A stretch of DNA of 64,000 nucleotides from Candidatus Woesearchaeota archaeon (lineage in GTDB: Archaea; Nanobdellota; Nanobdellia; Woesearchaeales; DSVV01), in NCBI GenBank assembly GCA_043813525.1, contig JBDRKY010000046.1:13053-77052 (forward strand), given 5' to 3'. Below are positions 22,000 through 44,507 of the stretch, one piece after another. Below the pieces are notes generated by a model that was not told the DNA's origin, searched no databases, and saw only the letters and a list, made by a program, of their open reading frames with translations. Numbering within the stretch: the stretch's first letter is position 1; each line of letters starts with the position of its first letter. The position numbers were made by a program, and so were the translations under genes.

Positions 22000-22225
22000 T
22001 CTGGGTTTAGGTTCGGGCTTTTAGATATTAATATTATAAATCCCAAAAAAACCAAATCCCAAATCCCAAAAAAACCAAATCCCAAATCCCAAAAAAACCA
22101 AATCCCAACAAAAATAAATCCCAAAAACAAAAAGAATATAGAGCGTAGCTCCTTTTTGGAGTTTGGGATTTGGAGTTTGGGATTTAAATTAATATCCCCT
22201 ACAGCCCGAACTTATACCCATATTG
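22000..22225. mobile_element. MITE-like element A (about 225 bp) with about 30-bp imperfect TIRs (CTGGGT(A/T)TA(A/G)GTTCGGGCT...) and internal (AATCCCAA)n / (CCAAAAAAACCAAATCCCAAAT)n microsatellite
   Basis: It is the reverse complement of the element at 44271-44507. Its own two ends are inverted repeats of each other. Confidence 0.65.
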
Positions 22226-22241
22226 TATTTTTATGTACTAT

Positions 22242-24644
22242 TTATCTTTCATAATACTTCTTTAGTATTTCATAGAACTCTTTGAAATTAGATATATCAT
22301 TTATTGTGAGCTCTGCAGTGCTGCTGCCTGTTGTGTTGAGAGTGATGTTTCCATTGCTGAACATCTTATTCAGCATGCCCTGTGAAAAATTGATATAATC
22401 AATCTTACTAAATACAATTGATTTTTGTTTCTTATAGACCATTCCATATCTCATATAAACCCTATATGGCTGAATGACATATCTCTTTACTTTTACATAC
22501 CATATTATCAATGGCAAAAATATGATGAATGGGAATATGATAATCACAGGAACAACTGAATTGATCATATCCTGCTTTGCTGTAAGGATTGGAGCTGGTG
22601 AATATTTATTGATGTTCTGTTCAATATCTCTAACTTTACTTGCAGAAGGTCTTGTATGGAATATCAGATCAATCAATTCATCTTTATTTTCAATATCATC
22701 AACATAATTGATATTAAAACCATTTGATATAATTCTCTTTTCTTTACCGCTTTGGATTACATGTTCTCCTGCAACATCAAACCTGATAGAGCCTCTGGAT
22801 GAAAATGGATATTTTGTCGTTGTGATATCTTTTATATTATCATAAGGCACATAATAAAACTCTTTGAAAAAGATTCCTCTTTGGAAATATACATATTCTT
22901 TGTGAAAAGTCATCTTTGATACTTCATAATAATAATATTTGTATATTGTTGATAAGATAAATAAAAATATTATACCTCCTGCAGATAATATCATCAATAT
23001 CATATATAATGGATTAAGGAATGCAGATATGATGAACAATGAAGGGATGATTATTATTAAAAACAATGTGAAAAAGAAATTTGCTTTCAGCATCTCACCA
23101 AAATTAAAATGGGAATCCATCTGATACAATATCTCGTTAGAATATGTTGAAAATTTATCTGTAACTCCATGAACCTTATCATTTTCTTTAATGCCAAGTT
23201 TTCCAAGGATATTCTTATACATATCTTTTATTTTCTTTATATTTGAGAAAGCTATATGTTCTGATGAGCCTATTGACCAGAAATTCACTGAACATGTATC
23301 AAACCATTTATCTATAAAATTCTCTTTGAATATGACAGCCATTATCTTATCATTAGTAAATTCTTTGTGCTTTGAATAGATGAAATTAAAATCTTCTGAC
23401 ATACTGTTCTTGTTTATCTTGTAAGTTGTAAAAGTAACTGTTATCAATGCAGTAACTAAAAGAATAAGCCATAATGGCAGCAGAATAAAGATTATTATGA
23501 AGAATGGTAAGGCCAGCAGTAATGGTATGAATGTCTTTCTGCTGTCCATCCTGAACTCTGCAGTAAAATCTGTATCTTTGCGAAGTTTTGCTCTATATTC
23601 TCCTGTTGTCTTTGCAGATGCTTTTTTTATAGTTTCAGCATGTAATTGATGTTCTTTTGCAACATGCCTTTTTCCTGTGCCTACTAAAGATTTAGTCTTT
23701 CCAATCAGCATATCAAGATTAGATTTTAATCTGTCTCCATTTCTCATATTCTTGAACTTGACTTCCTGTCCTGTACCTTGGCAGCTTATTTGTACATCAT
23801 ACAAACTGAATATTTTATCAACTAAAGTTTGAGTTGTTGTTGTATCTGACAGATTTTCCATTGGCATGATACTATAATTTTTAGTCAGAAATCCTTCTTT
23901 GTATGTTATTGTATCATTATAGATCCTATATCTTCTGTTTTTGAGGTCAAGGAAAGTGAATACAGGAAATGAGATAAGAAATATTATCACTGGAATACTA
24001 ATAACTAAAGCTATGATTATTGTATTAATATTTTTAATCTTATCTATCATATAAAAAAAGAACATGATAACAATAAATGCCGTGCTTATGAAATTTCGCA
24101 TAGCCTCAAAAAAAGCACCGATCAGACTAGGCTGTTCTTCCTGCACTAATTTTGATTTTGTCAGCTTAAATCCATTATGCTGCATTAATTTTTGGATGTA
24201 ATCATATGTTTTCCCATAAGAGCTGATAGATGACAGATAAACTTCAGCTGCGCTGCTTCCAGCAGACTGTATAGCAATATTTCCTGTGTTAAGTAGTTTG
24301 TTCTCGATAAAAGGCAGGACCATAGATACATTAGTAATATTTTTAACAATAAGCTCTGTTTCATTATCTGAAAATATACCACCTGATTTATGTATTATCT
24401 TGTTAGCTGTGAAAATATATCTCTCTTTATTGTATCTTACTGTGAGAGAATAATAAATGATTGCCTCAATCACCACGATAATTATAATGAAAAGTATGAG
24501 CCATACAAAAGTTCCTGTAAATATGCTTGCTATTATGCCCACTACACTAAAAAATAAGAATGTGATGATAAAGCTCTTGATGAAGCTATATGTAACAAAA
24601 GCAGTCCTATTTGGCTTTAGCTCATGTTGTGCTGGCTGCGGCAT
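22242..24644 (-). CDS. large membrane protein with repeated YdbT/bPH_2-like (membrane-flanked PH) domains
   Basis: 800 aa. Recurrent pairs of TM helices are followed by about 80-aa soluble modules (e.g. YYSLTVRYNKERYIFTANKIIHKSGGIFSDNETELIVKNITNVS). Confidence 0.55.
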   Translation of the reverse strand: MPQPAQHELKPNRTAFVTYSFIKSFIITFLFFSVVGIIASIFTGTFVWLILFIIIIVVIEAIIYYSLTVRYNKERYIFTANKIIHKSGGIFSDNETELIVKNITNVSMVLPFIENKLLNTGNIAIQSAGSSAAEVYLSSISSYGKTYDYIQKLMQHNGFKLTKSKLVQEEQPSLIGAFFEAMRNFISTAFIVIMFFFYMIDKIKNINTIIIALVISIPVIIFLISFPVFTFLDLKNRRYRIYNDTITYKEGFLTKNYSIMPMENLSDTTTTQTLVDKIFSLYDVQISCQGTGQEVKFKNMRNGDRLKSNLDMLIGKTKSLVGTGKRHVAKEHQLHAETIKKASAKTTGEYRAKLRKDTDFTAEFRMDSRKTFIPLLLALPFFIIIFILLPLWLILLVTALITVTFTTYKINKNSMSEDFNFIYSKHKEFTNDKIMAVIFKENFIDKWFDTCSVNFWSIGSSEHIAFSNIKKIKDMYKNILGKLGIKENDKVHGVTDKFSTYSNEILYQMDSHFNFGEMLKANFFFTLFLIIIIPSLFIISAFLNPLYMILMILSAGGIIFLFILSTIYKYYYYEVSKMTFHKEYVYFQRGIFFKEFYYVPYDNIKDITTTKYPFSSRGSIRFDVAGEHVIQSGKEKRIISNGFNINYVDDIENKDELIDLIFHTRPSASKVRDIEQNINKYSPAPILTAKQDMINSVVPVIIIFPFIIFLPLIIWYVKVKRYVIQPYRVYMRYGMVYKKQKSIVFSKIDYINFSQGMLNKMFSNGNITLNTTGSSTAELTINDISNFKEFYEILKKYYER

Positions 24645-24679
24645 AGTATTGTATAAAATATGATTAGGTTTATATATTT

Positions 24680-25861
24680 TTACTTAAGCTCAACCAGTGT
24701 TCTTATATTATCACTAAGATCAGCAAGATGAGAATCAACTTTTGGATTGCCTGTTGTAAGATAATTATATTCTCTTTTTAGTGTTTGGATAATCTCGTTG
24801 TTTGGCTTGTAATTGCTTCTTTTGCCTGTTGATGCTTGATGCACATACCATATCGGTTCAAATCCGCACCATGTTCCTGAGAATGCAGCAGCATCTGCAT
24901 TTAAGAAATCATAAAGAGATATTTCTCCTTCTCTTACATTAATGCCCATCTCCCTTGCAATTTCAATAACAAGAGCTCTTTTTGTTCCTGGCAGGATTGA
25001 CATATCTAATGAAGGTGTCCACAGCTGATTATCAAACACAGCAAACGCATTTTCACCCCCGCCTTCTAAAACATATCCGTTTGGGTCCAAAAGAAGAGCT
25101 TCGTCATAACCTAATGCTAATGCTGTGTTTTTAGCAACTCCACCTAATCCATAATTAGCTCCGCTTTTTATTTTTCTCATAACAGTTTGAATACCATTTT
25201 GGTAATTTTGTCCAGGAGGGAGCAATAGTGTTTCAAATACCAGCACTCTTGCACCTTGTTCAGGAGCTGAGCTTAAATATGATGGAACATTCTGCGCCAT
25301 GATCTCAAGAACAGCCTGATGCCCTATTGATGCAACTCCTAACCCAGAAACAAAAACAGGTCCATCATCTCCATCTACAATTTTCTCATCTCTATATACA
25401 TTTGGCCTGACATAAACTAATTCTCTTGGGTTGATATAACTCGTTTCCGCAGATATTGGGTTTATATTCTCTCTGATTGTCTGAAAAATTGCTTCCTTAA
25501 CTTCATCATGAGTAATGTTTAGATAAACCTGTGCTTCTTCTGGTATTGGTCTTGTTAGATCCCTATCTGGAAATGATCTTTCTAACATTTCTTCAATGCC
25601 TGTTAAATGTATTGGCTTAGTAATCATTAATGCTTCCATTGTTTTAAATAATCTATTAACATGTTTATCCAAAAAAAGAATGTACAGATTACCATCAACA
25701 CCTGGCACTCCAAGTATACCTTCAAAACCAGAAGTAGCATAATGCATCACATGCTTTGCAGGTGTATTTGTTATTTTTGAATATTCTCTTGCATTAATCA
25801 ATCCTTTTCTGCCTAATGTATCAAACCTGAATAATTTTGATTGTAATATATCTTTTGCCAT
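24680..25861 (-). CDS. class IV (branched-chain/D-amino-acid type) aminotransferase-like protein
   Basis: 393 aa with ATSGFEGI and HVNRLFKT motifs resembling BCAT/DAAT fold IV. The gene is GC-shifted. Confidence 0.55.
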   Translation of the reverse strand: MAKDILQSKLFRFDTLGRKGLINAREYSKITNTPAKHVMHYATSGFEGILGVPGVDGNLYILFLDKHVNRLFKTMEALMITKPIHLTGIEEMLERSFPDRDLTRPIPEEAQVYLNITHDEVKEAIFQTIRENINPISAETSYINPRELVYVRPNVYRDEKIVDGDDGPVFVSGLGVASIGHQAVLEIMAQNVPSYLSSAPEQGARVLVFETLLLPPGQNYQNGIQTVMRKIKSGANYGLGGVAKNTALALGYDEALLLDPNGYVLEGGGENAFAVFDNQLWTPSLDMSILPGTKRALVIEIAREMGINVREGEISLYDFLNADAAAFSGTWCGFEPIWYVHQASTGKRSNYKPNNEIIQTLKREYNYLTTGNPKVDSHLADLSDNIRTLVELK

Positions 25862-26038
25862 GTTTACACCTCATTAGTCATTAATTTCTTGTTTTATTAG
25901 TTTGGATTATATAACCTGTTTGATAATATTTCAGCTTATTTATTGTTGGATTTATGTTTGCTTAAAAAAGTTTATGGAATATGATTTTTTACTTTAAAAT
26001 AGAATAAATATAAAAATAAGGTATTTTTTCTAGTAATC

Positions 26039-26640
26039 ATGACTAAAAAAACAAGGAAAGGAGCAGTAGCAATAAGAAAGAGAAGGAAACAGAGAGCAGA
26101 TGCACACTCCAGAGAAAAGTTAGGAGTTCTTCATCAAAATATGTTTCTTTATTAAGTGTTTCATCTTTACCGAGCTCATCTTTATCACAAAGTGCAGGCA
26201 TATATGGTTTATCTGCATATAAATCAGCAGGAGATATATCACAAGCGCATGATTCGTTTACGTTTAGGTCAGAAGGATATTGTGCTCATGATCAAAAGAA
26301 AAAACCAAATGACCTGTATGATTTTGGTTCTATGATGCTTATTGTATTAGGATTTTATGTAGCTCTTGGAGTTGGTGCATGGTATTATATACCAAATTTA
26401 GTTCCAATAAAATTACCTGAAATCACTTCACCTGCACCAGCTAATCTGGAATCATTGCATCAAAATATGGAAGTGATTACAACAAAGCTTTAGGTGAGAT
26501 GATGAAAAGACAAGCTGAATCTTATCGAAGAATGTTTAGATCTTTTCCAGAACCTACTTGGTCTTCAGATCTTGAAAATGATATTGATGAACTGTTCAGG
26601 TCTGCTGATAATCCACAAAGAATGAACAGAAGAGTTTTAG
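26039..26640 (+). pseudogene. probable degraded gene (series of short frame-shifted ORFs)
   Basis: About 880 bp with no ORF of 60 aa or more. MTKKTRKGAVAIRKRRKQ... stops after 38 codons. A membrane-protein-like reading (…MMLIVLGFYVALGVGAWYYIPN…) continues in another frame, and a third fragment MMKRQAESYRRMF... follows. Confidence 0.3.
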
Positions 26641-26997
26641 AAACTTCATCTTTATGATTTAGTTCCTGATACTGTATCTGTACTTTTTAAAATTGGTTGT
26701 TTTGAATAAGCATATAAATTAGCAAAATTATATGATTATGAAGTGCCAGATGCATTATATACTGTCGCGGAAAATACTCTGATTGAAAAACTTTATGGAA
26801 TTGTACCTAAAACTGAGGTTGAACCAAATGTTTTGTCAATTCTTCTTAATATATCCTGTGTTAGGCATTATGCAAAACATTGGATGCATGTTGAACATAT
26901 TCCTGAAAGTGATGTTCCTGAAGGATATAATGGTAAATTTGTTTTAGTGAGTTATAATATTTAACAGGTATTCTTTTTGTAAATTTTATTTATTATA

Positions 26998-28350
26998 TTA
27001 TTGATTCTCATTCTCAACTTTTATCCTATATCTTAAATCATTAATAATATTCATAAATGCGATAAAGCAGTCATAAGGGCTTTCATAGGGGTTGAAATAT
27101 TTGTGGACGTCTCCGTCAGAAAACCATTTTGTGCACATATAATAAAAATGATCACTTGTTTGCAATCTTCTCCAGTCATTGATTAGTTTTTCTGCTGCTT
27201 TTTTTTTGCTGTTATCTTTATCACTGATATTGTTTGATATTCTTATCATATCTGGCTCCATATCATGCAGATTATTGAATGCTGCTTCCTGCATATGATT
27301 GCCAAGCCATGCTGATAAATCACGTTCAACATCTGCCCATGAAACAAAATTATGCATGTCTATCTCTCCCTTTGATTTATATTTTCTGATAGCTTCTGAT
27401 GGTGTTACAAAATCATTGCTTTGGTGTTTAGATTCTACAAGATGATTTTGAGGTTTAGAATGCTGGTCAGAATCTCCTTGATTTTTGGAGCTGTTAAGCA
27501 GTTCTTCAGGCAGTTTTTCCATGAATTTGAATATTCCTGTATCTTCCCATTGATGCTCTCCAAATGTCTCATAATCCATAAATAAATTTAATACTTCACC
27601 ATTGCCATGGATCTTGTTTATCCAACCAGCAAACTTTTCAGCTGTTAAAGGCCATTCATCCCATCCTTTGTTTGAAAACCTGAATGCAATATCATCACTA
27701 AGCTTATAATTCTTCAGAAGAAGCTTTATTTTCTTATGCTGTGGCTTTTCAGAAGTTGTTTTTGCATTGTAAACAAAATTAGGGCTTCTCCAATCAAGAA
27801 TATGATCTGCACCCTCTGTAATGATTCCTTTGAAACCTTTTTCTTCCATAAAACTAGCTAATTCATTATTAAAAATAAGTTCAGTATTCCTAAAAACTTT
27901 TGATCTTGCATTCTCTGCGCCAAACAATTCTTTAATCTTTCTTTTGTGCAAATTTACCTGATGCATGAATTCTTTTTTTGATTTTAGAAATGAAAGCGAA
28001 TGATGGAATGTCTCATTCAGAAATTCAATATTTCCTGTATCTGCCAGATGCTGGAAAGATTCAATAACTTTAGGGGTGTATTCTTCAAACTGCTCTAATG
28101 CTGTTCCGGATATTGAATATGATATCTTGAATTGTTTGTTGTTATTGATGTGTTTTTCTTTACTGAACCTATCAATTAATCTGAGCATTAATTTGTTTGC
28201 AGGGATATAACATTTTCCAGCAACTTTCTCACAGATCTCTTTATTCTTTTTGTGATCAAAATAATCATGATTTTTACCAATATCAAATACTTTATAGTTT
28301 TTTAATCTATAAGGTTGGTGAACTTGGAAATAAAAGCATGTGGATACCAT
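26998..28350 (-). CDS. glycoside hydrolase family 57 protein (alpha-amylase/alpha-glucan processing type)
   Basis: 450 aa. The N-terminal YFQVHQPYRL matches the GH57 signature. It neighbours a glycogen-synthase-like GT. Confidence 0.7.
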   Translation of the reverse strand: MVSTCFYFQVHQPYRLKNYKVFDIGKNHDYFDHKKNKEICEKVAGKCYIPANKLMLRLIDRFSKEKHINNNKQFKISYSISGTALEQFEEYTPKVIESFQHLADTGNIEFLNETFHHSLSFLKSKKEFMHQVNLHKRKIKELFGAENARSKVFRNTELIFNNELASFMEEKGFKGIITEGADHILDWRSPNFVYNAKTTSEKPQHKKIKLLLKNYKLSDDIAFRFSNKGWDEWPLTAEKFAGWINKIHGNGEVLNLFMDYETFGEHQWEDTGIFKFMEKLPEELLNSSKNQGDSDQHSKPQNHLVESKHQSNDFVTPSEAIRKYKSKGEIDMHNFVSWADVERDLSAWLGNHMQEAAFNNLHDMEPDMIRISNNISDKDNSKKKAAEKLINDWRRLQTSDHFYYMCTKWFSDGDVHKYFNPYESPYDCFIAFMNIINDLRYRIKVENENQ

Positions 28351-28450: not shown

Positions 28451-29722
28451 CTAAGCCCCAGCCCCTAAACCCTTTTTTAAAACATTATTATATACATCAA
28501 TACATTTTTTTGCAGGATTGTTCCAGTCAAATTTCATCACTTCTTTTGCACCATTCTCTTGCAGGCATTTATGTGCTTCCTGATAATTTAAAACACCGAT
28601 TATTTTATTTGCCATATCATCAATATCCCAAAAATCAACCTTTAACGCATGATCTAATATTTCACTGACACCAGATTGTTTTGATATCAACACTGGTGTA
28701 TTGTTTCTCATTGCTTCTAATGGTGTTATTCCAAAAGGCTCTGATATAGATGGCATCACATAAAGATCAGCCATAGAATATGCTCTGTCAATATCTTTTC
28801 CTCTCAAAAAACCAGTGAACAAAACTTTGTCTGCAATTCCCATCCTTGCAGCTTCTTCAATCATATAACCTTCCATATCTCCATTCCCAGCAACAACAAA
28901 TTTAACATTGTTTTTGTATCCTATATTTTTATATTCTAAAACTCTTTTTGCAGCTTTCAGAAACCAATCTGGACCTTTTTGTATAGTAATTCTTCCTAAG
29001 AAAAGAACAACATGATCTCCATCTTTTATCTTCTCAGCTGACTTATCGAATTTGTTGCCATTAAATTCAACTGCATTGTGCACAACTGTAATCTTTTCTG
29101 CTGGTATACCATAGTGTTCAACAATCTTGTTTTTTGTGAACTTAGAGACAGACATTATGTGATCTGCTGTATGCATGCCTTTTCTTTCGATATCATAGAT
29201 ATATTGGTTTGGATTGCCGCCTGTCCTGTCAAACTCAGTAGCATGGACATGAATAACAAAAGGTTTTCCTGAGGTCTGTTTTGCTTCAATGCCTGCCTGA
29301 TAAGTCATCCAGTCATGGCAATGAATTATGTCATGCTCTTCTTCATCTGCAATGACAGCTGCCTGTTTGGCATATCTATGGACTTCTTCGTAAAGGTTTT
29401 TACTGTAGATTGCATCTTTTGAACTTTTGTTGGCACGATAATGCTCTTGGTAGCTTTCATATCGTTCATTATATTTCTCAGAATCAATATATGGTATAAG
29501 CAAAGAATCAACTTTTTTAATTATTATATTCTTAATATTAGTGATGCGGTCTGCAACAATTAGTTTGACATGTGTTTTTTCTGGTTCTGTTTTTGCTTTT
29601 GGCATAACAAAAGTTACATCTATATTTTGATTAGAAAGACCTTTCGTAAGTCCGTGACAGGCTGTACCTAAACCTCCAGAACTATATGGCGGGAATTCCC
29701 AGCCAAACATAAGTACTTTCAT
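28451..29722 (-). CDS. glycosyltransferase family 4/5, archaeal glycogen synthase-like
   Basis: 423 aa. An N-terminal MFGWEFPPYSSGGLGT and a C-terminal PSISEPFGITPLEAM (EX7E-type motif). Confidence 0.7.
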   Translation of the reverse strand: MKVLMFGWEFPPYSSGGLGTACHGLTKGLSNQNIDVTFVMPKAKTEPEKTHVKLIVADRITNIKNIIIKKVDSLLIPYIDSEKYNERYESYQEHYRANKSSKDAIYSKNLYEEVHRYAKQAAVIADEEEHDIIHCHDWMTYQAGIEAKQTSGKPFVIHVHATEFDRTGGNPNQYIYDIERKGMHTADHIMSVSKFTKNKIVEHYGIPAEKITVVHNAVEFNGNKFDKSAEKIKDGDHVVLFLGRITIQKGPDWFLKAAKRVLEYKNIGYKNNVKFVVAGNGDMEGYMIEEAARMGIADKVLFTGFLRGKDIDRAYSMADLYVMPSISEPFGITPLEAMRNNTPVLISKQSGVSEILDHALKVDFWDIDDMANKIIGVLNYQEAHKCLQENGAKEVMKFDWNNPAKKCIDVYNNVLKKGLGAGA

Positions 29723-29981: not shown

Positions 29982-30563
29982 GTGGGAACACGAGAATTAG
30001 ATGAGCAGGAAAAACTTATTGTAAGAGAATTAATCAAAGATCCAAGGATTAGTGATAATCAGATTTCTCAAAAGACAAATATCCCTTTGAAGAGTGTAAA
30101 CAGGAAAAGGAAAAAGATGGAATTTGAAGGCCTATTAAGTTATTATGCGCATCTGGATAATACTGAAAAAGGAACAGGCAGGTTTGGCGGAAGGCATCTT
30201 TATACAATCAAATTGAATCATGGCATCTCAAGAAAAAGTTTCTTGGATTTCCTAAAAAATAATTCTGCAAGAAATAATCATAAACTAAGGCATGTGCACT
30301 CTACTTTTTTGGGAACATCAGGTGGTAATTTAGTCCTTGTAAAACTGATTGAATCAAGGTTAAGCTCTGATATCATTGAGATTTTTAATTGCGATTTAGT
30401 TCCGGAAATAAAACAGCATTTTGGTGAAGATGCAATTGTAAGCGCAGATGTCATACAGATTGATGAAATATTCAGGATGTTCCATAATTATATGCCTGGA
30501 ATCAATATGACAGATGGCAAAATCTCAGAACACTGGAATGATGATATGGTTTTTGTTGATTAG
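29982..30563 (+). CDS. HTH-containing putative transcriptional regulator
   Basis: 193 aa. An N-terminal LIVRELIKDPRISDNQISQKTNIPLKSVNRKRKKM winged-helix-like region. Confidence 0.45.
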   Translation: MGTRELDEQEKLIVRELIKDPRISDNQISQKTNIPLKSVNRKRKKMEFEGLLSYYAHLDNTEKGTGRFGGRHLYTIKLNHGISRKSFLDFLKNNSARNNHKLRHVHSTFLGTSGGNLVLVKLIESRLSSDIIEIFNCDLVPEIKQHFGEDAIVSADVIQIDEIFRMFHNYMPGINMTDGKISEHWNDDMVFVD

Positions 30564-35998: not shown

Positions 35999-36087
35999 GG
36001 GGCATCTGGGTTAACAATCATAACAACAACTCTAATGCTAATGGCAACAATAACCTTAACAACAATAGCCGTTTCCTTCGAATAGCT
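35999..36087 (+). repeat. DGR template repeat (TR), about 89 bp, immediately upstream of the RT gene
   Basis: GGGGCATCTGGGTTAACAATCATAACAACAACTCTAATGCTAATGGCAACAATAACCTTAACAACAATAGCCGTTTCCTTCGAATAGC is adenine-rich with AAC/AAT codons in the VR frame. It ends 9 nt before the RT start codon. Confidence 0.85.
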
Positions 36088-36096
36088 CATATTATT

Positions 36097-37179
36097 ATGA
36101 ATTATCAAGAATTGTGTTCTTACCAAAACTTAGAGTTGGCTTTCAAGAAAGCGAGAAAAGGAAAAACAACAAAGGATTATGTCATTGCTTTTGAGAAAGA
36201 CATGAAAGAAAATCTAACTAACCTTCGTTATGAACTTCTTTTACATAGTTATCGACCAAAACCACTAGAAATATTTATTATTAGAGATCCAAAAACAAGA
36301 ACGATTAGCAAGTCAGATTTTAGAGATAGAGTTGTTCATCACGCCCTATGTAATGTTATTGCTCCAACATTTGAAAAACATTTTATCCATGACTCTTATG
36401 CCAACCAAGTTGGAAAGGGAGCATTGAAAGCAATTTCTCGTTTTGATGAGTTTACAAGAATAGCCTCCAACAATTACACTAAGAAGATATTTGTTCTAAA
36501 GGCTGACATAAGAAAATATTTTGAGAATGTCAACCACAACGTCTTATTAGAATTATTACAAGCGCAGATTAAAGACAAGAAGATATTATGGTTAATCAAA
36601 CTAATATTATCAAACCATGCAACAAAAGTATCAAACAAAGGAATGCCTTTAGGTAATCTAACTTCACAATTCTTTGCCAATGTTTATTTACATGAGTTAG
36701 ACTTGTTTGTTAAGCATATTATCAAAGCGAAATATTACATTCGTTACGTGGATGACTTTATTATCATCAATAAAAGTAAGAACAAACTGAAACAATTCAA
36801 GAAGGAAATTAACAAATTTCTTTTAGAAAAATTAGATTTAGAACTGCACCCAGAAAAATCGAGAATTATTCAACTACAAAAGGGGATTAATTTCTTAGGA
36901 TTTAGAATATTTCCACAATACAAACTACTTGTAAAAAAGAATTTGCGGAAATTTAAAGCAAAACTAAATAATTACTCTGAAAATTTCCCAAAGGGTTGTT
37001 CAGATTACGACAAAATCTATGATTTCTTAGAAGGTTGGACTGCTTATGCTAAATATGCTAGCACCTACAAGCTAAGAAAAGAAATATTCCAAAGTATTGA
37101 ACCAGTCTTTGAAAACCAAATGTCAACCAAAGAAATCAACAGATACCTCAAAACAATCAAGAATCATAAGAAATCTTGA
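36097..37179 (+). CDS. diversity-generating retroelement reverse transcriptase (DGR RT)
   Basis: 360 aa. RT domains 1-7 with the catalytic YVDDFII. Motif 4 is MPLGNLTSQFFANVYL, the DGR-type (I/L)GxxxSQ rather than the group II QGxxxSP. There is no maturase/X or En domain. The TR is directly upstream. Confidence 0.85.
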   Translation: MNYQELCSYQNLELAFKKARKGKTTKDYVIAFEKDMKENLTNLRYELLLHSYRPKPLEIFIIRDPKTRTISKSDFRDRVVHHALCNVIAPTFEKHFIHDSYANQVGKGALKAISRFDEFTRIASNNYTKKIFVLKADIRKYFENVNHNVLLELLQAQIKDKKILWLIKLILSNHATKVSNKGMPLGNLTSQFFANVYLHELDLFVKHIIKAKYYIRYVDDFIIINKSKNKLKQFKKEINKFLLEKLDLELHPEKSRIIQLQKGINFLGFRIFPQYKLLVKKNLRKFKAKLNNYSENFPKGCSDYDKIYDFLEGWTAYAKYASTYKLRKEIFQSIEPVFENQMSTKEINRYLKTIKNHKKS

Positions 37180-37436
37180 CGCACAAATACACAAAACAGC
37201 AGCAAGCTTTTTATATCAGTAAGTCTTCTATCACGATAAGTTGGCGTTTACAGCCAAATACCAAAAGTGAGCTGAGATAAGAAAATTTGATGCGCAATAA
37301 GCAAGAAGGCGTTTTGCGCAAGAGGCTTTGAAAGCCACAAATTCTTAGCGCAGAAGTAATTACTAGAGAAAAGTAACAAATGTGCAAACATTTACCAATT
37401 CTCGTCGAAAACCTTAAGATAAACATTTATAGCCAA

Positions 37437-37456
37437 AGTTTGACAGTTGTCAAACT
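37437..37456. repeat. partial copy of intergenic palindrome AGTTTGACAGTTGTCAAACT
   Basis: It matches the first hairpin of the elements at 15278 and 47354, and lies in the 370-bp non-coding region downstream of the RT. Confidence 0.5.
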
Positions 37457-37555
37457 GAAGTTATAATCAAATTTCTAAAAAAACCATCCTATTAAAGCTT
37501 TAGGACTCTCTTCTTTCATTAATCTATTATATAATTCAGCTAATCTTTTAATAGA

Positions 37556-38332
37556 TTAATGCCCTTTTGACTCTTCTGCCATTGCCAGAAAATATTTCAA
37601 TGTAATTCTGTATTGTTCTTGTATCTCTTTATTATCAAGACAAACAAGTTTACTGTTTCTTATTACAGATCCGCTTAATTGTGAACAGTGATATTGTTTT
37701 ACTGGGCTGCTTTCTTTTAATCCTATCATACTGCCAACATTGCTTGATCCGTATTCATCTTTGTCTGGCTCGATTTTTCCATTGATATATCTCTCAACAA
37801 AGTTTGCCTCTTCCAGAACTCTGTAAAATTCTTCAGTATCTGTTGTAGGGCTCTCTCTTTTTTCTCCAGCATCATGTTCTTTTTCAGATTCCATATCTCC
37901 AATAACCTCATAGACTAAAGCAAAGCTTTTTATTCTTCCGTTAGTGTGCATATCTAATGTTGCATGATAGACTTCACTTGTTGTGCATGCATCAAAACTT
38001 ACAGTGTAAGAATAAGTTATTATTTCTCTTCCATTTATTGATTTTCCTTTATACTCTCGTCCATATTTTCTGACTAATGCAATAGCTCTTTGAACCAGAT
38101 CTTTAGCTGAATGTTGCTGTTCATCTAAGTTATCTTTTGGTAATCTTGTTTCTTGTTCTTCAGGCAGTCTTATGTGCTGTTCTGTAGGTGTTGTTATTTG
38201 TTGGTCAGGCGGCTCATTTTGTTCTTGCGCATATGCATTTGCAATAAACTCTAATCCATTCTCTATCACTCTTGGTATTGATAAAAATGCAAATCCTGCA
38301 ATTACTCCTTCTAATAATCTTCGTCTTTTCAT
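37556..38332 (-). CDS. hypothetical secreted/membrane-anchored protein
   Basis: 258 aa with an N-terminal signal-anchor-like hydrophobic segment (LLEGVIAGFAFLSIP). Confidence 0.45.
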   Translation of the reverse strand: MKRRRLLEGVIAGFAFLSIPRVIENGLEFIANAYAQEQNEPPDQQITTPTEQHIRLPEEQETRLPKDNLDEQQHSAKDLVQRAIALVRKYGREYKGKSINGREIITYSYTVSFDACTTSEVYHATLDMHTNGRIKSFALVYEVIGDMESEKEHDAGEKRESPTTDTEEFYRVLEEANFVERYINGKIEPDKDEYGSSNVGSMIGLKESSPVKQYHCSQLSGSVIRNSKLVCLDNKEIQEQYRITLKYFLAMAEESKGH

Positions 38333-38502
38333 ATCTCTATATAATACATCCTTATATAAATATGTTTTTATAGACGATAAATTTATCTATATATTATTCG
38401 GAAATATTGATATTAAGAACGAAAAAACATAATGTTAATCAACTTGTTTTGTACTTTTATTGATTATTTATAATTTTCAATTCATAATATCTGAATGCTT
38501 TA

Positions 38503-39660
38503 TTATTTATCATATTCGCAGCTTTTTGGGAGTATTAATACTAATCTCGGATGGCTTGGTTTTTGTTTTTGCTCTTCTGCAATATTTCCATAGTCTACAA
38601 TATGTGCAGCACCTATCACAACTGCCATATTACCAACATAATTATTATTATTACCTGCATAACCATTATCACTTGCATAACCATTAATACCTTTAGCTAA
38701 TCTGTCAGATATAGTTAATGTATTGTTATAGCTTTCCCAGCTTCTTTTTTTATTTCTTTGATTTTCTTTTTCTATTAATCCTATCGCTTCTTGAAGTTCA
38801 CTTTCACTCATGTTTTCCGTGTCTTTGGCTATTTTAACTAATCTTTTATAACCTCTTTGCTGTTCTGGGCTTTGGTTTTCCCAGCCATATATTTTTATAC
38901 CTTTTAAATAACATAATATATGGAATAGATCAGTATGTGATTTAGGGAGAACTATCCTGAGTTCATCGTCATTTAACCCAAGCATTAATCTCCTGTCCTG
39001 TTCAGAAACTTCTGTATTTGCTTTTTCTGATATATCACTTTCAGCCATCATAAACCCTTCTAATGTCACTGCATCTATTATTCCTTTCCCATGTATTTCT
39101 CTTATTTCTCTGTATAATTGTATCTGGCATTCAAGTGAGCCTTTCTCATAAATAATCTCATCTTTATCACTTTTTGACATAGTGTCTGGATGATACTGTA
39201 GAAATACATAGATTGTTCTTTGATCATTTTTGTGTTCTAATAATACCTGATATTCTCCATTAAGATTTCTAAGATAAGATTCAGCTGATTTAGCTCTTTG
39301 TTCTATTGTATCTGCTGTTAAATCTTTTTTTTCTGTAATCCCTATAATCCCTACATTCTTTATTTCTGTAGCTTTTTTTCCTGCAGTATTTGTTCCTGTA
39401 TATTCTGAATATTCAAGCTCAGTATCAACATGAGCAATACGATCTTCTGTTGTGTCACCAGAATCATAATTATTTCCTAATGCAAAATAAGCAGCAATCC
39501 CGCCAAATAATAAGGCTCCTGCTCCTAAAATTGGTTTCCAATATCTTTTTACATTTGCCAAAAAACCTATATATTTAGATGCAGAACTATTTCTTTTTTT
39601 CATATCTTTAGTTCTTTTTGGCTTTCTATAGTGTTTCTTTCTACTATTGGCTTTTCCCAT
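38503..39660 (-). CDS. hypothetical membrane-anchored protein
   Basis: 385 aa with a basic N-terminus, one TM helix (ILGAGALLFGGIAAYFAL) and a long extracytoplasmic domain. Confidence 0.45.
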   Translation of the reverse strand: MGKANSRKKHYRKPKRTKDMKKRNSSASKYIGFLANVKRYWKPILGAGALLFGGIAAYFALGNNYDSGDTTEDRIAHVDTELEYSEYTGTNTAGKKATEIKNVGIIGITEKKDLTADTIEQRAKSAESYLRNLNGEYQVLLEHKNDQRTIYVFLQYHPDTMSKSDKDEIIYEKGSLECQIQLYREIREIHGKGIIDAVTLEGFMMAESDISEKANTEVSEQDRRLMLGLNDDELRIVLPKSHTDLFHILCYLKGIKIYGWENQSPEQQRGYKRLVKIAKDTENMSESELQEAIGLIEKENQRNKKRSWESYNNTLTISDRLAKGINGYASDNGYAGNNNNYVGNMAVVIGAAHIVDYGNIAEEQKQKPSHPRLVLILPKSCEYDK

Positions 39661-39770
39661 TTTATTAATATTGATATTTAATGATTATTTATAAATTTAA
39701 TCATATTTAATACTAATAAGTAGTAACAAAATCGAAAACTTTATAAATAATAGGTTTTCAGGAGTATTAT

Positions 39771-40676
39771 ATGGCAAAAAATGATGGTTTAGAGGGTTAT
39801 TATAATATCGTCAATACAACTATTGCTCTTGATTATCTTCTTGATAATAAATATAGTAATGATGCTCGTATATTTGAAAGTGATAAAGAAGATTTTTATG
39901 CTATTGGATTGGAACATGTAAAGATTGGCAGAAAAACATTAGCAGAACTCCTTGGGATTGAAACAGACAGGCTTACAGACCTAACTCCTGAAGCAGAAAC
40001 TATCCATCAAGAAGCACATCAACTGGTTGAATCTTTCTTAGGCAGAAGCTTTGCTCAAAGAGAGGTATATGCAATCAGTGGCTTAAACATTGTAGGTGCT
40101 TCATTCCCAATTTTACCTGTAATTTTGATTGATTCAGATATTACAGGATTAAAGCCTGATTATTCTGATTATCTTGTTTTTGCTGTAGATAATAAGGAAA
40201 TAACTGGTAAATTATTGAAACCTAATGATTATTTAATGTCTATTTTATGCCATGAATATGGGCATCAGGTTTTTAGTGAATGTTATAAGCAAGAAATTGA
40301 ACACTTAATTTCAAGATATTTGCCAAGTTTAAACAGCTTGTCTGACTCAAATCAAGATGAACCAGAATTACGGGCAAGACTATCTATTGATGAAGCATTT
40401 GCATTTTGGTTTGGTGAAGAAGTTTATGGTGTGAGTCATTTATCTGAAGCTCTTGCAAATATATATGAAAAAAGATTAGATAGCAGGCTTATGAAACATA
40501 TATATTCTGTTCTAAAAACAAAATCTAAACAACATGGAAAACAATATGTTCTTGATAATTTTGTTGATATTGTATCTGATAACATAGATAATATATTGCC
40601 TGTTAGGCTTAGAGCAACTTGTCTTGCTGTATTGTTGAATGATGATTCATCAATTTATACTGGTCAAATTAAGTAA
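39771..40676 (+). CDS. putative zinc metallopeptidase (HExxH motif)
   Basis: 301 aa with LCHEYGHQVF (HExxH) near residue 160. No other family assignment. Confidence 0.45.
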   Translation: MAKNDGLEGYYNIVNTTIALDYLLDNKYSNDARIFESDKEDFYAIGLEHVKIGRKTLAELLGIETDRLTDLTPEAETIHQEAHQLVESFLGRSFAQREVYAISGLNIVGASFPILPVILIDSDITGLKPDYSDYLVFAVDNKEITGKLLKPNDYLMSILCHEYGHQVFSECYKQEIEHLISRYLPSLNSLSDSNQDEPELRARLSIDEAFAFWFGEEVYGVSHLSEALANIYEKRLDSRLMKHIYSVLKTKSKQHGKQYVLDNFVDIVSDNIDNILPVRLRATCLAVLLNDDSSIYTGQIK

Positions 40677-40726: not shown

Positions 40727-41386
40727 ATGATAACTAAAGCAGAGAAAACAGGCATTAGGGAATATAATAAAGAGAAAAAATCAGATTTAGCGATGAAACT
40801 ACTTTTATCTTTATATGCAATATTAATGATAATCATAGCCAGGTATGCAATACTGACTAATGCAACTACTTGGCTTTGGGATGCAGGAGTTACATTTACA
40901 ATTGTATTTGTTGTTTATCTGTCAAGGAATAAATTAAGATTAAATGCATGGCTCTATGCTATGTTTTTGTTTAGCCTTGCCTTGCATACTTTAGGTGTTT
41001 ATGGCTTTTATACTAAACAGTTCTTTGGTCTGGATTTTGATCATTACACACATTTCTTTGCTAGTTTTGCAGTAAGCATGATACTTTGCAATTGGTTGTT
41101 ACATTATAATAATCTAAAATCTAAATTTGCAACTGTCTGTTTCATCGCAATATTAATGACAATTGGGATAAGTGCAATCCATGAGACAATAGAATTTCTT
41201 GGCTATACTTTTTTGAATGCAGATGGCGCTAATCTCTTTTTCCCAGGCAATACTGCAATTCCCAGCCTAACAGCTGCAGATATTGGTGATAGTGGAACAT
41301 ATTCTAACACAATGATTGATATCATCTATAATATGGTCGGTGCTGTTGCTGGGTGTGTTGTGATTGGTATGAATAAGCTATTTTGA
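40727..41386 (+). CDS. integral membrane protein, unknown function
   Basis: 219 aa with about 6 TM helices and a conserved HETIEFLGY motif. Confidence 0.45.
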   Translation: MITKAEKTGIREYNKEKKSDLAMKLLLSLYAILMIIIARYAILTNATTWLWDAGVTFTIVFVVYLSRNKLRLNAWLYAMFLFSLALHTLGVYGFYTKQFFGLDFDHYTHFFASFAVSMILCNWLLHYNNLKSKFATVCFIAILMTIGISAIHETIEFLGYTFLNADGANLFFPGNTAIPSLTAADIGDSGTYSNTMIDIIYNMVGAVAGCVVIGMNKLF

Positions 41387-41403: not shown

Positions 41404-42396
41404 TTACTTTAAAATGCCTAAATGTAATATTCTGGAGCCTGTCTGATTGACTGGGTCAATGCTTTTTCCAATTATAATTCCATCCTCTGGGCTGAAATAA
41501 GTCTCTATGATATCACCAAAAATATTCTTAACCTTTGCAATCTCTTCACCTTTTTTTACTTTCTCAGCCAGACCAAGATAAACCTGTAACACACCTCCAT
41601 CAGTTGTATATAACCAATATGATTTTTTACATATCACTGGTTTCTGAGCTGGTGGAATTATATCACCTTCAATCATCCTTAGATGTATAAATGTGTTTAA
41701 TATGCCGTTAACAGAAGATATCACCATGTTTTTCTGGAATCTGTGGGGATTGCCTAATTCAACAGTGATACACTTTATTTTTTCATCTGTTGCTGATCTT
41801 CTTAATGTGCCTTTGCTACCTATATTATGCAGGATAATCTCAGCATTCTGTAATAATGCCATCCTTCTGGTCACATGATCTTTCATGTTTGCTCTCACAT
41901 AAAATGAATTAACCCTTCCAGAACTTGCAGTGTGAAGATCTATCAGATAATTCATATGCTTAATAATCTTTGAGAAAAATCTATATGCATATATTTCGCT
42001 TCTGTTCCCTCTTGGATTTCCAGGCATAATCTTATTCAGGTCTATCTCGTCATTGAATTTTCTTTTTCTTCTTATGAAACCAGTAACATTTGAGACAGGA
42101 ACACCGATTATTGTACCCTTTAATCTCATAGGATTTATTTTTTTGATAATATTATGAATAACTAATATTCCATTTAATTCATTTCCATGTATTGCAGCTG
42201 TCAACCCAAATACAGGCCCTTGTTCAATCCCTTTTGCAATTATCAAAGGTACATATATTGGATTCCCAAGGCCATCAGAAATAATATGCAGATGATATTT
42301 CTCTATTGTACCAGGTTTAATCTTATCTAAATCAAGATCATAAATTATTTCATTATTATCATGTGAAGCTCTCATTTTACTCAACCAATATTTCAT
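41404..42396 (-). CDS. succinylglutamate desuccinylase/aspartoacylase (AstE/AspA) family zinc carboxypeptidase-like protein
   Basis: 330 aa with GLTAAIHGNELNG, the H-x-x-E zinc-binding signature of the family, and a downstream DLH motif. Confidence 0.6.
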   Translation of the reverse strand: MKYWLSKMRASHDNNEIIYDLDLDKIKPGTIEKYHLHIISDGLGNPIYVPLIIAKGIEQGPVFGLTAAIHGNELNGILVIHNIIKKINPMRLKGTIIGVPVSNVTGFIRRKRKFNDEIDLNKIMPGNPRGNRSEIYAYRFFSKIIKHMNYLIDLHTASSGRVNSFYVRANMKDHVTRRMALLQNAEIILHNIGSKGTLRRSATDEKIKCITVELGNPHRFQKNMVISSVNGILNTFIHLRMIEGDIIPPAQKPVICKKSYWLYTTDGGVLQVYLGLAEKVKKGEEIAKVKNIFGDIIETYFSPEDGIIIGKSIDPVNQTGSRILHLGILK

Positions 42397-43810
42397 GGAT
42401 TAGTTTCTCATCTGTGTTTAATGATTTAAACAATTTTCTTTTAAATTTACCTTCTTCATTGATAAGATTGTTCGCCATCTTATCTATCGCGACAAATGCA
42501 AGAATAGCCTGAATATACGCTTCAATCAGATCATCAAGACCAATTCCTAATATATTGAAATCCTTCTTGTCCATGATTAATAATCTTTCAGTATCAGATG
42601 TCCATCTGTTCTCTCCTTTTTTTACAGAAAGATTTGTACCAAGAATTTCCCATGAATATCTATTGTCTGGAAGTTTGTTAACTAAAGGCTTTTTTGCTCT
42701 TCTTGCATATAATGCCACAGGCCTGATACCTTCTTTTGTGTTTACAATCATAAATCTCAAGTCAGCAACATAAATATCATTATGTTTGTTTGGCAAAGTA
42801 CCTATATGATAAAACTTGTCTACCTTACCAATAGAACTCCATGAAAAATTTCCTATCAGGCTCTGGACTATGAACTGATCATACCCAAAATCCTTGCTCA
42901 TAAATTTGTCTAACTCTTTTTGATTTGTTATAGTGAATACTCCCTGTCCTGCATTGCTGTATGGCACTTTTACCACAGCATGCCCATTGAATCTTTTTAC
43001 CCATAAAGGTATCTCATTTTTTGAGACATCCCTTATTGTTTCTGGAATATTTATCTTTAGACCTGTCCCCAATAATTCAGAATTTAAAAGATCATATGCT
43101 TTTGCTGCAACCATCTTGTTTCTTCCGCCAGCTAAACAAACTATTGTTGGGTTATAGACTAGTGTCTTTGTCTGTATAGGTATTCTGTTCCATGGTTTCT
43201 GTGTTACATAACGGATAGCAGCTTTTATGGGATATATCTTATCTTTGTGTTTGATATGTAAAATACCATCTTTGAAAGATATATGATCATTTTCCTCTCC
43301 GTTAAAAAAAGGAACAAGAAATACATTTTCATCCTTAATTTGTGCAAGAGCTGAAGCATAACCTGAAGCTTCCATATAGTTCTTGTCATATAATACAGCT
43401 AATCTGCCTTTGGGAAGGGATTTGTCTTTCAATAAAGGCATGAATGAATTCTTTATAAGGAATTCATAACCACCCATCTCTTTATGTTCATTGAATAATG
43501 GCATAGACTTCTGTCCTGATGGTGAAGAATTTGTCTCAATCAATGCTATCTTACGATTTCCTTTCTCTGTTGTTACATAAAACAGGTCTGCTCCTGCCCA
43601 TCTCATATATTTAGGCTTATACTCAATGATTGATTTAAGTACATCTTTATTTGTTGATGGATTCAGATGACAATACCTTTTTATGATCTGGTCTGTCTTT
43701 AGAGTAAGAAAATAAGATACTAAATGGTGCAGAGACGCATTGATAACTTTAGTGTAATAATGTTGTTCTACAGTGAATGTGTTTGGCTTGATGAGCTCAA
43801 CTTTTTTCAT
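42377..43810 (-). CDS. ATP-grasp-fold protein (RimK-like ligase family, putative)
   Basis: 477 aa with IALIETNSSPSG and GHAVVKVPYSNAGQGVF glycine-rich ATP-grasp-like motifs. It overlaps the AstE/AspA gene by 20 bp, suggesting an operon. Confidence 0.4.
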   Translation of the reverse strand: MKKVELIKPNTFTVEQHYYTKVINASLHHLVSYFLTLKTDQIIKRYCHLNPSTNKDVLKSIIEYKPKYMRWAGADLFYVTTEKGNRKIALIETNSSPSGQKSMPLFNEHKEMGGYEFLIKNSFMPLLKDKSLPKGRLAVLYDKNYMEASGYASALAQIKDENVFLVPFFNGEENDHISFKDGILHIKHKDKIYPIKAAIRYVTQKPWNRIPIQTKTLVYNPTIVCLAGGRNKMVAAKAYDLLNSELLGTGLKINIPETIRDVSKNEIPLWVKRFNGHAVVKVPYSNAGQGVFTITNQKELDKFMSKDFGYDQFIVQSLIGNFSWSSIGKVDKFYHIGTLPNKHNDIYVADLRFMIVNTKEGIRPVALYARRAKKPLVNKLPDNRYSWEILGTNLSVKKGENRWTSDTERLLIMDKKDFNILGIGLDDLIEAYIQAILAFVAIDKMANNLINEEGKFKRKLFKSLNTDEKLIHEILVE

Positions 43811-43857
43811 TTCTTGGATAGTCTGATTATCTATTTATAAATTTGATTATTTAAGAT

Positions 43858-44271
43858 TTATTCAATATACTTAATCATTCCCCTTACTTCAATCAAAGTA
43901 CCATCCTGTATCATATCATCAATTATCTTTTCACCATACTTTTCAATTAAGCCCATAGAATCAGCTTCATTATTATTTTCCTTGAGGTAGTTGATGATTT
44001 CTTTTCTTATTGATTCTGCCTGTTTTGCTAAGTTTTCTTTTTCTGCTTTTTTCTCATGAATATTTTCTTTCTCAAGCATTTCAAGAACAGCTTTTATATG
44101 CTTGCAAACAGTACCTTTTCTTTTTGCATAAAATATGTAACCTGGGCAGCTGCATACCTGCTTTATAGGATCAACTATATAGAACTTGCCTTTGCTTGAA
44201 GCAGATTCAACTTTGTACTTGTCTTGCTGTTTTATTATGTTCATCTTGCTGTTTATACCAATAATATCCAA
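43858..44271 (-). CDS. SWIM zinc-finger protein
   Basis: 137 aa with CSCPGYIFYAKRKGTVCKHI, the CxC...CxH SWIM pattern. Confidence 0.5.
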   Translation of the reverse strand: MDIIGINSKMNIIKQQDKYKVESASSKGKFYIVDPIKQVCSCPGYIFYAKRKGTVCKHIKAVLEMLEKENIHEKKAEKENLAKQAESIRKEIINYLKENNNEADSMGLIEKYGEKIIDDMIQDGTLIEVRGMIKYIE

Positions 44272-44507
44272 TCTGGGTATAAGTTCGGGCTGTAGGAAAT
44301 ATTAATTTAAATCCCAAATCCCAAATCCCAAATCCCAAATCCCAAATCCCAAATCCCAAACTCCAAAAAGGAGCTACGCTCTATATTCTTTTTGTTTTTG
44401 GGATTTATTTTTGTTGGGATTTGGTTTTTTTGGGATTTGTGATTTCCAAGCGTTAGCTTGGTTTGTGATTTATAATATTAATATCTAAAAACCCGAACTT
44501 AGATCCA
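44271..44507. mobile_element. MITE-like element B, inverted copy of 22000-22225, with six AATCCCAA tandem units
   Basis: A shared core, GGGTATAAGTTCGGGCTGTAGG...CTCCAAAAAGGAGCTACGCTCTATATTCTTTTTGTTTTTGGGATTTATTTTTGTTGGGATTTGGTTTTTTTGGGATTT...ATAATATTAATATCTAAAAACCCGAAC, is reverse-complementary to element A. Confidence 0.65.

Follow-up and report, generated by a model that had tools for sequence, protein, structure and literature searches.

Two inverted copies of one short repeat lie about 22 kb apart in a 64-kb stretch of DNA from an uncultured Woesearchaeota archaeon (64,000 nucleotides, hereafter the window), and the question which this locus raises is what the pair says about the DNA between its members. 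The original prediction, made from the sequence, was that the copies bracket an accessory segment which might invert by recombination between them, or which might represent a composite transposon. The reading put forward here, which is held with high confidence, is that the repeat, named F1, belongs to the non-autonomous DNA transposons (MITEs), measures about 230 bp and is present as two separate insertions, which mark neither an island nor a unit that has been moved or flipped. F1 is a new MITE family, belonging to a type of element that is already known.

The existence of the two copies, and the fact that they are reverse complements of each other, were confirmed. With refined boundaries, F1a comprises 229 bp (21997-22225, + strand) and F1b 244 bp (44269-44512, - strand, inverted with respect to F1a). 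Their alignment contains 192 matches, 24 mismatches and 41 gap columns, equivalent to 89% identity over aligned columns, and includes a core run of about 75 nt without any difference, while the repeat finder returned 109 nt at 97%. Each of the core strings quoted as common to both has exactly two occurrences in the window, where chance would give 0-0.04, and a profile search of the 64 kb revealed no third copy. Terminal inverted repeats are indeed present, although imperfect: 24-25 of the 40 terminal positions pair, the solid part being some 16 nt long (GGGT[AT]TA[AG]GTTCGGG). Each copy forms one long hairpin (single-stranded DNA folding, z = -6.8 for F1a and -10.7 for F1b).

Both copies are intergenic, and their contexts relative to the neighbouring genes differ. 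F1a lies between the stop of the gene for a PH-domain membrane protein (22242-24644, -) and the start of a DUF5752 gene (21403-21915, -), and F1b between the divergent starts of a SWIM gene (43858-44244, -) and ORF 44968-46239 (+). A single ORF, of 88 aa with a TTG start, extends over F1a and runs through a low-complexity array; no ORF is common to F1a and F1b. Moreover, no Rfam family matched F1 at threshold, the best E-value (0.028) being far below gathering scores and of the kind given by microRNA-like hairpin noise. Of the features by which MITEs are recognized, F1 shows the small size, terminal repeats of at least 10-15 bp, duplications of 2-10 bp and the lack of coding capacity. The ends of F1 also carry AT-rich, TATA-like strings which face outwards.

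The copies differ most visibly in their tandem arrays. In the left arm of F1a, a 23-mer (AAATCCCAAAAAAACCAAATCCC) is repeated 3.1 times with 100% matches (22038-22108, +), where F1b has about one unit, and in its right arm a 14-mer (TTTGGAGTTTGGGA) is repeated 2.2 times (22155-22185, +). F1b, in turn, contains 7.4 units of the 7-mer AAATCCC, again with 100% matches (44309-44360, +), at a place where F1a has about two units, interrupted. The microsatellite lengths are thus copy-specific, as had been proposed, and the slippage claimed for the repeat is supported as a change occurring since the F1 copies diverged, because the arrays are perfect yet of differing length.

Inspection of the borders of both elements, which the original prediction had suggested, revealed a private 8-bp direct repeat at each. 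F1a is flanked by two identical copies of TATTTTTA (21989-21996 and 22226-22233; 8/8, with a chance of about 1e-4). For F1b, at boundaries homologous to those of F1a, the low-coordinate side (44261-44268) reads GATATTAT and the high-coordinate side (44513-44520) GATATTCT, both on the - strand, which match at 7/8 positions (the chance of at least 7/8 being about 3e-3). The possession of its own duplication by each copy points to two independent cut-and-paste insertions, and strengthens the "MITE-like" label.

F1 is not the only family of this kind in the window, since four further MITE-type elements were found in the 64 kb, three of them belonging to a second family (F2) and one to a third (F3). 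F2a (192 bp; 19292-19483, +) possesses perfect 18-nt terminal inverted repeats (GTATGTAATAAGTCTCCT) and an 8/8 duplication (GATTTTTG). F2b (47102-47293, -) is 96% identical to F2a, inverted with respect to it and without a target-site duplication; ORF 46285-47109 takes its final codons and its TAA stop from the tip of F2b. The diverged copy F2c (309 bp; 55642-55950, -) has a different interior and likewise no target-site duplication, while F3 (330 bp; 55153-55482) shows 38-nt terminal inverted repeats and an 8/8 duplication (TCTGTTTT). Duplications of 8 bp accompany four of the six copies overall, those of F2a and F3 (two of the four further elements) being perfect. Furthermore, the subterminal motif GGATATTGTT of F3 is common to F1 and F2. 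In the form G[GA]ATATT[AG][AT]T it occurs 15 times in the window, against 4.6 expected, and nine of the 15 occurrences lie in MITE ends, all facing inwards; a scan of the window combining motif and repeat recovered exactly the six elements (two F1, three F2 and F3). The window also contains hairpin repeats of another type (F4), which are located at the 3' ends of genes.

With four more MITE copies nearby, chance suffices to account for an inverted F1 pair (probability 1/2 for any one pair). The repeat families are nevertheless arranged as a mirror image, F4-F2-F1 ... F1-F2-F4, the left copy of each family being inverted with respect to the right ones. This order and orientation are treated here as chance (about 1/32 for orientation alone), though without an explanation for them. 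Two other accounts of the mirror, both very improbable, are a rule fixing how this MITE group is oriented with respect to a replication or strand-switch point near 30 kb, and repeated symmetric inversions involving the F1 pair; were the inversions real, the interval bearing the diversity-generating retroelement (DGR) would be present in both orientations in the population. The 2.5-kb spacers between F2 and F1 on each side were considered as an old inverted duplication and rejected, the proteins encoded there being unrelated.

Most of the gene content listed for the interval was verified. The DGR comprises a reverse transcriptase (36097-37179), an Rfam RT-16 RNA (35845-35998) and a VR/TR pair in which 16 of the 17 mismatches fall at TR adenines. 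The integrase remnant corresponds to a XerA-like fragment in ORF 33538-33990 (matched aa 11-52, E = 2.9e-6), located 11 kb away from either F1 copy. GH57, a GT5 glycogen-synthase-like gene and AstE/AspA are present as well. The listing failed in two respects: no ATP-grasp domain was detected in 42377-43810, and no gene is clearly GC-shifted, the GC content in 1-kb steps being 0.27-0.37 inside the interval and 0.26-0.40 outside. No tRNA gene was found in the window, nor any DUF5752 remnant in the gene-free 1.1-kb gap at 25862-26997.

Comparison with related Woesearchaeota loci shows how this neighbourhood is organized where F1 is absent. In the loci L140 and L128, GT5-GH57-DUF5752 occur in the same order and on the same strand as across F1a in the window, and L140 then runs on, like the window, to S24e-Rpb7-PIN_9. 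GT5-GH57-Aminotran_4 (aminotransferase IV) is found in L138, with SWIM and DUF2238 nearby, and DUF2238-HTH_24-GT5-GH57 in L125. Homologues of the SWIM and DUF2238 genes located close to F1b thus belong to this region in L138 and L125 as well, the DUF2238-SWIM block of L138 being inverted with respect to the window and L125. Homologues of GH57 at about 60% identity number in the thousands, many of them named as Woesearchaeota. For the flanking PH-domain protein, the best homologues show just 54% identity and are non-syntenic. The stretch which varies between relatives extends over 30851-40676, between the anchors HTH_24 (29982-30563) and DUF2238 (40727-41386), and contains AAA_14/DUF4143, HATPase_c_4-HTH, the integrase fragment, the DGR and other ORFs. 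This variable stretch (about 30.8-40.7 kb) is well inside the F1 pair and is not bounded by it, and the 22-kb interval is in the ancestral orientation, collinear with the relatives.

The claim that the pair brackets an accessory segment is not borne out by these data, since genes on the inner side (GT5-GH57-Aminotran_4, SWIM, DUF2238) and on the outer side (DUF5752, Rpb7, PIN_9) adjoin in relatives, the GC content is flat and the variable part is internal. The related idea that the two F1 copies and the intervening DNA have moved, or can move, as a 22.5-kb composite transposon is suggested by a layout like that of mobilised MITE-flanked sequences such as integrons (PMC10969869), and by the mobile-looking genes inside (DGR, integrase fragment, AAA_14/DUF4143). 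It is nonetheless the least probable of the readings considered, to the point of being nearly excluded. The outer flanks of the whole unit, TATTTTTA and AGAATATC, match at only 2/8 positions, hence there is no duplication of the unit, and each element keeps a private one instead. Genes on either side of the copies, within the interval and immediately beyond it, are conserved as neighbours in relatives without F1, and the GC content is flat; furthermore, F1 is non-coding, and a matching transposase is absent from the window. Such a use of the flanks is of some general value, as duplications can rule out past inversion or composite transposition without read data.

The same flanks bear on the proposal that the F1 copies act as recombination sites, so that the 22-kb DGR-bearing interval flips, occasionally or as a population-level switch. 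In favour of this are the inverted layout and a stretch of identity of about 75 nt (97% over 109 nt), which may suffice for recombination; the copies are still a formal substrate for it. Moreover, MITEs and IS elements have been described as recombination hotspots (PMC10969869), and local rearrangements do occur in the neighbourhood in relatives, such as the inverted block of L138. After an F1 x F1 inversion, however, the swapped flanks would be expected to match, and they do so at only 4/8 and 4/8 positions, compared with 8/8 and 7/8 for the flanks that each copy has as its own. The matched duplications having been kept, the net number of crossovers between the F1 copies since insertion must be zero or even. 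Nor does gene order speak for flipping: as in L140 and L128, GT5-GH57 is followed collinearly by DUF5752 and Rpb7/PIN_9; the only recombinase near the repeats is a fragment, with no intact one present, and the other four MITE copies make equally good inverted pairs, so that the F1 pair is not special. Segment inversion thus finds no positive evidence here, and flipping, also as a rare ongoing event, is considered unlikely. If reads showed it, the interest would be moderate, as a case of a large inversion mediated by MITEs in an archaeon with an ultra-small genome.

A different possibility is that F1, instead of being a transposon, has been kept or spread for a host function as a structured element between genes, for example a REP-like hairpin, a small RNA gene or a promoter/terminator module. 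Its strong hairpins in both copies are compatible with such a role, as are the F4 hairpins at gene 3' ends and a TATA-like string, TTTAAATTAATAT, about 60-75 nt upstream of the ATG of the SWIM gene, which might serve as a promoter element. Direct duplications of 8 bp, on the other hand, mark staggered-cut transposition and are unexpected for spread of the REP/RAYT type or for a conserved RNA gene. In addition, Rfam gave no family at threshold, the gene contexts of F1a and F1b differ, and no element homologous to F1 was found in about 216 kb of related Woesearchaeota loci, either at the corresponding sites or elsewhere. A host function is accordingly regarded as highly unlikely, and independent insertion of a MITE remains the preferred reading.

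According to this preferred reading, a transposase supplied in trans would bind the imperfect terminal inverted repeats together with the inward-facing subterminal motif. The enzyme would cut with a stagger of 8 bp at AT-rich intergenic targets, into which F1 would be pasted, and gap repair would then generate the 8-bp target-site duplication. After insertion, the arrays in the hairpin arms would change in length by slippage, the 23-mer in F1a and the 7-mer in F1b, while the inverted layout at 22 kb would be a coincidence in a MITE-dense genome. Whereas the repeat with its terminal inverted repeats and hairpin, the duplications, the differing arrays, the sister families and the synteny across the junctions were observed directly, the type of transposase and the mobilisation of F1 in trans are inferred. 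Neither an autonomous element nor a transposase with F1-like ends was found within the window, the only transposase gene there being ISH3-like (50745-51818). This gene was rejected as the parent of F1, as its flanks contain neither terminal repeats nor the subterminal motif and the 8-bp duplications differ in length from the target-site duplication of the ISH3 family, which is 4-5 bp.

Searches for F1 relatives were extended to larger collections. The terminal repeat, as an 18-nt degenerate pattern in 596 Gb of genome contigs, gave 117 loci with no similarity beyond the seed, the pattern being too short; every locus was an isolated match, the genomes being unrelated and mostly bacterial. With a 20-nt seed from the F1 core, metagenome contigs yielded one match, attributable to chance. 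Viral contigs returned no match to the F1 terminal repeat, the F1 core, the F1 left end or the F4 palindrome, and nine matches to the F2 terminal repeat, which span only 18-21 nt.

Several known systems can be compared with these elements. The Correia repeat-enclosed elements of Neisseria are abundant intergenic MITEs too, but they duplicate TA, where F1 duplicates 8 bp instead, and what is described as inverting in their case is a single element, as opposed to 22 kb of DNA between two copies. Among archaea, the MITEs of Sulfolobus are linked to known ISs. The MITEs SM1-SM4 of Sulfolobus solfataricus P2 (Redder, She and Garrett 2001, as cited in PMC10969869) and those of DPANN/Woesearchaea are, like the MITEs of the window, small (about 200-330 bp) and non-coding, with terminal repeats and short duplications, and in both cases the elements are intergenic, with several families per genome and a high density. 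The likeness of F1 to archaeal MITEs concerns these features, and F1 has in addition two expandable arrays in its hairpin arms. MITE-mobilised integrons (PMC10969869) also have two copies of one MITE around a gene block, as here; the F1 copies, however, have their own duplications and no outer one, and the genes which they flank are largely conserved chromosomal neighbours.

As for the origin of the transposase, the IS66 family/ISBst12 group shows 8-bp direct repeats and ends starting with GTA, and ISDge4, for instance, has the ends GTGAC/GTAAC and an 8-bp direct repeat (PMC12898284). The tips of F2 and F3 start with GTATG and GTACA, with 8-bp duplications, whereas those of F1 start with GAG/CAA, and no IS66-type transposase occurs in the window. 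This group may be taken as a candidate source of the transposase, as a lead only, on these two generic features. The motif common to the three families, together with the 8-bp duplications, offers a handle for finding the transposase active in a DPANN archaeon.

Prokaryotic MITEs range in size from about 50 to 800 bp, and a published census counts a Woesearchaea genome among the most MITE-dense of archaea, with 105 per Mb (PMC11602168). In a lineage reported as MITE-rich, the present locus is a routine case which contributes at least one uncatalogued MITE family, its density of six in 64 kb being about that census figure.

The two inverted elements of the original prediction were confirmed by direct reading and alignment, and their limits were refined to 21997-22225 on the plus strand (F1a, 229 bp) and 44269-44512 on the minus strand (F1b, 244 bp, inverted relative to F1a). 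The copies are 89% identical over aligned columns only (192 matches, 24 mismatches); about 75 consecutive nt are the same in both, repeat detection gave a 109-nt match at 97%, and three indel blocks separate the two. The core strings first described occur exactly twice in 64 kb, versus 0-0.04 expected, and a search of the window with a profile made from F1a and F1b returned no third copy. Against shuffles, the folding of each copy into one extended hairpin scores z = -6.8 and -10.7. The predicted terminal inverted repeats of about 30 bp are present but imperfect, with 24-25 of 40 positions pairing and a solid core of GGGT[AT]TA[AG]GTTCGGG. The predicted copy-specific arrays are real and perfect, a 23-mer repeated 3.1 times in the left arm of F1a and a 7-mer repeated 7.4 times in the right arm of F1b, which supports a past change in array length by repeat slippage after the copies diverged.

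An 8-bp direct duplication around a copy is the footprint of a staggered-cut, cut-and-paste insertion. When flanks were compared at boundaries homologous in both copies (GA..TGG... to ...CCCA[TG]ATTG), both F1 elements were found to have private 8-bp duplications: F1a has TATTTTTA on both sides (8/8), and F1b lies between GATATTCT and GATATTAT (7/8). For random 8-mers at the same spacing in the window, the corresponding chances are about 1e-4 for 8/8 and 2e-3 to 3e-3 for at least 7/8. Moreover, F1 has no coding capacity and no Rfam family match, and both sites are intergenic. Thus, what had been called MITE-like is a MITE by the working definition, based on size, terminal inverted repeats, target-site duplication and non-coding character (PMC11602168). 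The MITE pair F1a and F1b is genuine and well formed, represents a family not catalogued before, and lies in a MITE-rich Woesearchaeota genome. No relative of F1 came up when metagenome and viral contigs were scanned with exact seeds, so this family appears to be either confined to this lineage or poorly sampled.

Two further MITE families are found in the window. F2 has perfect terminal inverted repeats of 18 nt (GTATGTAATAAGTCTCCT), with one copy at 19292-19483 on the plus strand (F2a, 8/8 duplication GATTTTTG), another, 96% identical and inverted, at 47102-47293 on the minus strand (F2b), and a diverged one at 55642-55950, also on the minus strand (F2c). No 8-bp duplication was found at F2b or F2c, the flanks of which are partly inverted-complementary (GTTTT[AG]T..), and the tip of F2b provides the last codons and TAA stop of a TPR ORF (46285-47109). 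F3 (55153-55482, 330 bp) ends in terminal inverted repeats of 38 nt and is flanked by an 8/8 duplication, TCTGTTTT. Common to the twelve aligned ends of the three families is an inward-facing subterminal motif, G[GA]ATATT[AG][AT]T, located some 17-25 nt inside the tips; it occurs 15 times in the window versus 4.6 expected, nine of these within MITE ends. A scan for pairs of inward-facing motifs whose outer ends match recovered exactly the six MITE copies in the window, and about 216 kb of loci from related Woesearchaeota yielded none. At six copies in 64 kb, the MITE density of the window is of the same order of magnitude as the 105 per Mb of a Woesearchaea genome that ranks among the most MITE-dense of archaea in a census of prokaryotic MITEs (PMC11602168). 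F1, F2 and F3 are inferred to be mobilised by a single kind of transposase that cuts with an 8-bp stagger. No transposase with matching ends or motif is present in the window; its sole transposase gene (50745-51818), ISH3-like at 135 bits and below the NCBIfam cutoff of 225, has neither and was rejected as the parent of F1. In combination with 8-bp duplications, the GTA... at the tips of F2 and F3 is reminiscent of the IS66/ISBst12 group (example in PMC12898284), a candidate source to be taken as a lead only.

The F1 pair had been proposed to bracket a 22-kb accessory segment, but it does not. GC content is flat across the F1 boundaries and the window has no tRNA gene; stronger evidence is that, in relatives, the genes flanking the F1 sites on either side form part of a single conserved neighbourhood. 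On the minus strand, the window carries GT5 (28451-29722), GH57 (26998-28350), an aminotransferase IV (24680-25861) and a PH-domain protein (22242-24644), followed beyond F1a by two DUF5752 genes (21403-21915 and 20808-21317) and, further on, by S24e, Rpb7 and PIN_9 (8644-10321). The PH-domain protein shows 100% identity to NCBI protein MFH1439422.1, encoded on a 98,548-bp contig of a MAG named Candidatus Woesearchaeota archaeon. The gene order and strand are those of a related contig, L140 (GCA_016935125.1), with GT5-GH57-DUF5752-DUF5752 and then S24e, Rpb7 and PIN_9 a few kb on, so that the F1a junction joins ancestral neighbours. Similarly, L128 (GCA_042571645.1) has GT5-GH57 and then a DUF5752 homologue, and L138 (GCA_018303325.1) has GT5-(Avd)-GH57-aminotransferase IV, its SWIM and DUF2238 genes lying a few kb off. 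Homologues of GH57 at about 60% identity number in the thousands, and many are named as Woesearchaeota. The conserved block also includes the SWIM gene abutting F1b (43858-44244, minus strand) and DUF2238 (40727-41386). A fourth relative, L125, reads DUF2238, 3.4 kb, HTH_24-GT5-GH57. The part that differs among relatives lies between HTH_24 and DUF2238: 3.4 kb of unrelated genes in L125, versus about 10 kb in the window. The accessory DNA is therefore roughly 30.8-40.7 kb (AAA_14/DUF4143, HATPase_c_4-HTH, a XerA-like fragment, a DGR and unknown ORFs), well within the F1 pair and unrelated to it.

A unit moved on its outer ends, as in a composite transposon, should bear one duplication at those ends; here the match between outer flanks is 2/8 and each F1 copy keeps its own duplication, and this reading was rejected. 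Segment inversion is a further reading of the pair, the copies being still a formal recombination substrate. A crossover between inverted copies swaps flanks, after which each copy would carry one of its own 8-mers and the reverse complement of one of the other's. Swapped pairs match at only 4/8 and 4/8 versus 8/8 and 7/8 unswapped; on balance, then, the two F1 copies have undergone zero or an even number of crossovers with each other after inserting, and the present orientation of the interval is the one collinear with relatives. Rearrangements of this neighbourhood do occur in the lineage, the DUF2238-SWIM block being inverted in L138 versus the window and L125, but nothing ties them to F1. 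The bracketed-island, composite-transposon and inversion readings of the F1 pair are not supported.

The DGR within the pair looks complete (34274-37179) and comprises a target ORF (34274-35776, VR at 35668-35760), an Rfam RT-16 RNA (35845-35998), the TR (35997-36089) and a reverse transcriptase (36097-37179); 16 of 17 TR/VR mismatches lie at TR adenines. The XerA-like integrase fragment (ORF 33538-33990) is found just upstream. Avd-like genes (23S_rRNA_IVP/bAvd) occur beside or between GT5 and GH57 in L138 (7598-7999 and 10859-11266) and L125 (11563-11949 and 13119-13478), and therefore DGR-type parts recur in this neighbourhood across relatives. L138 also contains 5.4 kb without called genes (11266-16665). 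The 1.1-kb stretch between the GH57 and aminotransferase genes of the window (25862-26997), versus 350 bp or less in L138, has only ORFs of at most 73 aa and reversed GC skew, with no DUF5752 remnant and no Rfam family.

A double-hairpin repeat, F4 (AAGTTTGACAnnTGTCAAACTT then AATTTATTTATCAAGCCCTnnnAGGGCATnTAAATAAATT), is found at 15260-15350 (plus), 37417-37466 (minus) and 47302-47388 (minus), the last directly abutting F2b. Every copy lies shortly beyond the 3' end of a gene on the minus strand and is terminator-like or REP-like. Left of about 30 kb, the copy of each family is inverted versus those on the right (F1 +/-, F2 +/-/-, F4 +/-/-), and the family order is mirrored over 15260-47388 (F4-F2-F1 ... 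F1-F2-F4), with F2-to-F1 spacings of about 2.5 kb on the left versus 2.6 kb on the right. The genes of the two F2-F1 stretches show no homology, the chance of the orientation pattern alone is about 1/32, and the arrangement is treated as coincidence.

Among the other features of the window, the ISH3-like DDE transposase gene is preceded by 650 bp that lack genes and include a perfect 24-nt palindrome (50678-50701), and it lies next to genes for an N6/N4 DNA methylase (52238-53839) and a TdeIII-type restriction endonuclease (54334-55158); F3 and F2c fill the intergenic space next to the latter. A full five-domain MutS of 895 aa is encoded at 2970-5657. Between F1b and ORF 44968-46239, a sequence of about 24 nt that holds the palindrome TGCCACGTTGGCA is directly repeated (44575-44598 and 44641-44664, 66 nt apart) and looks like a paired regulator-binding site. 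Finally, a 37-nt repeat (16083-16119, 34234-34270 and 39712-39748) ends in AAACTTTATAAAT, resembling archaeal BRE/TATA. ORFs 34274 and 39771 start about 3-22 nt downstream of this repeat, which also adjoins 16134 and probably represents a shared promoter module.
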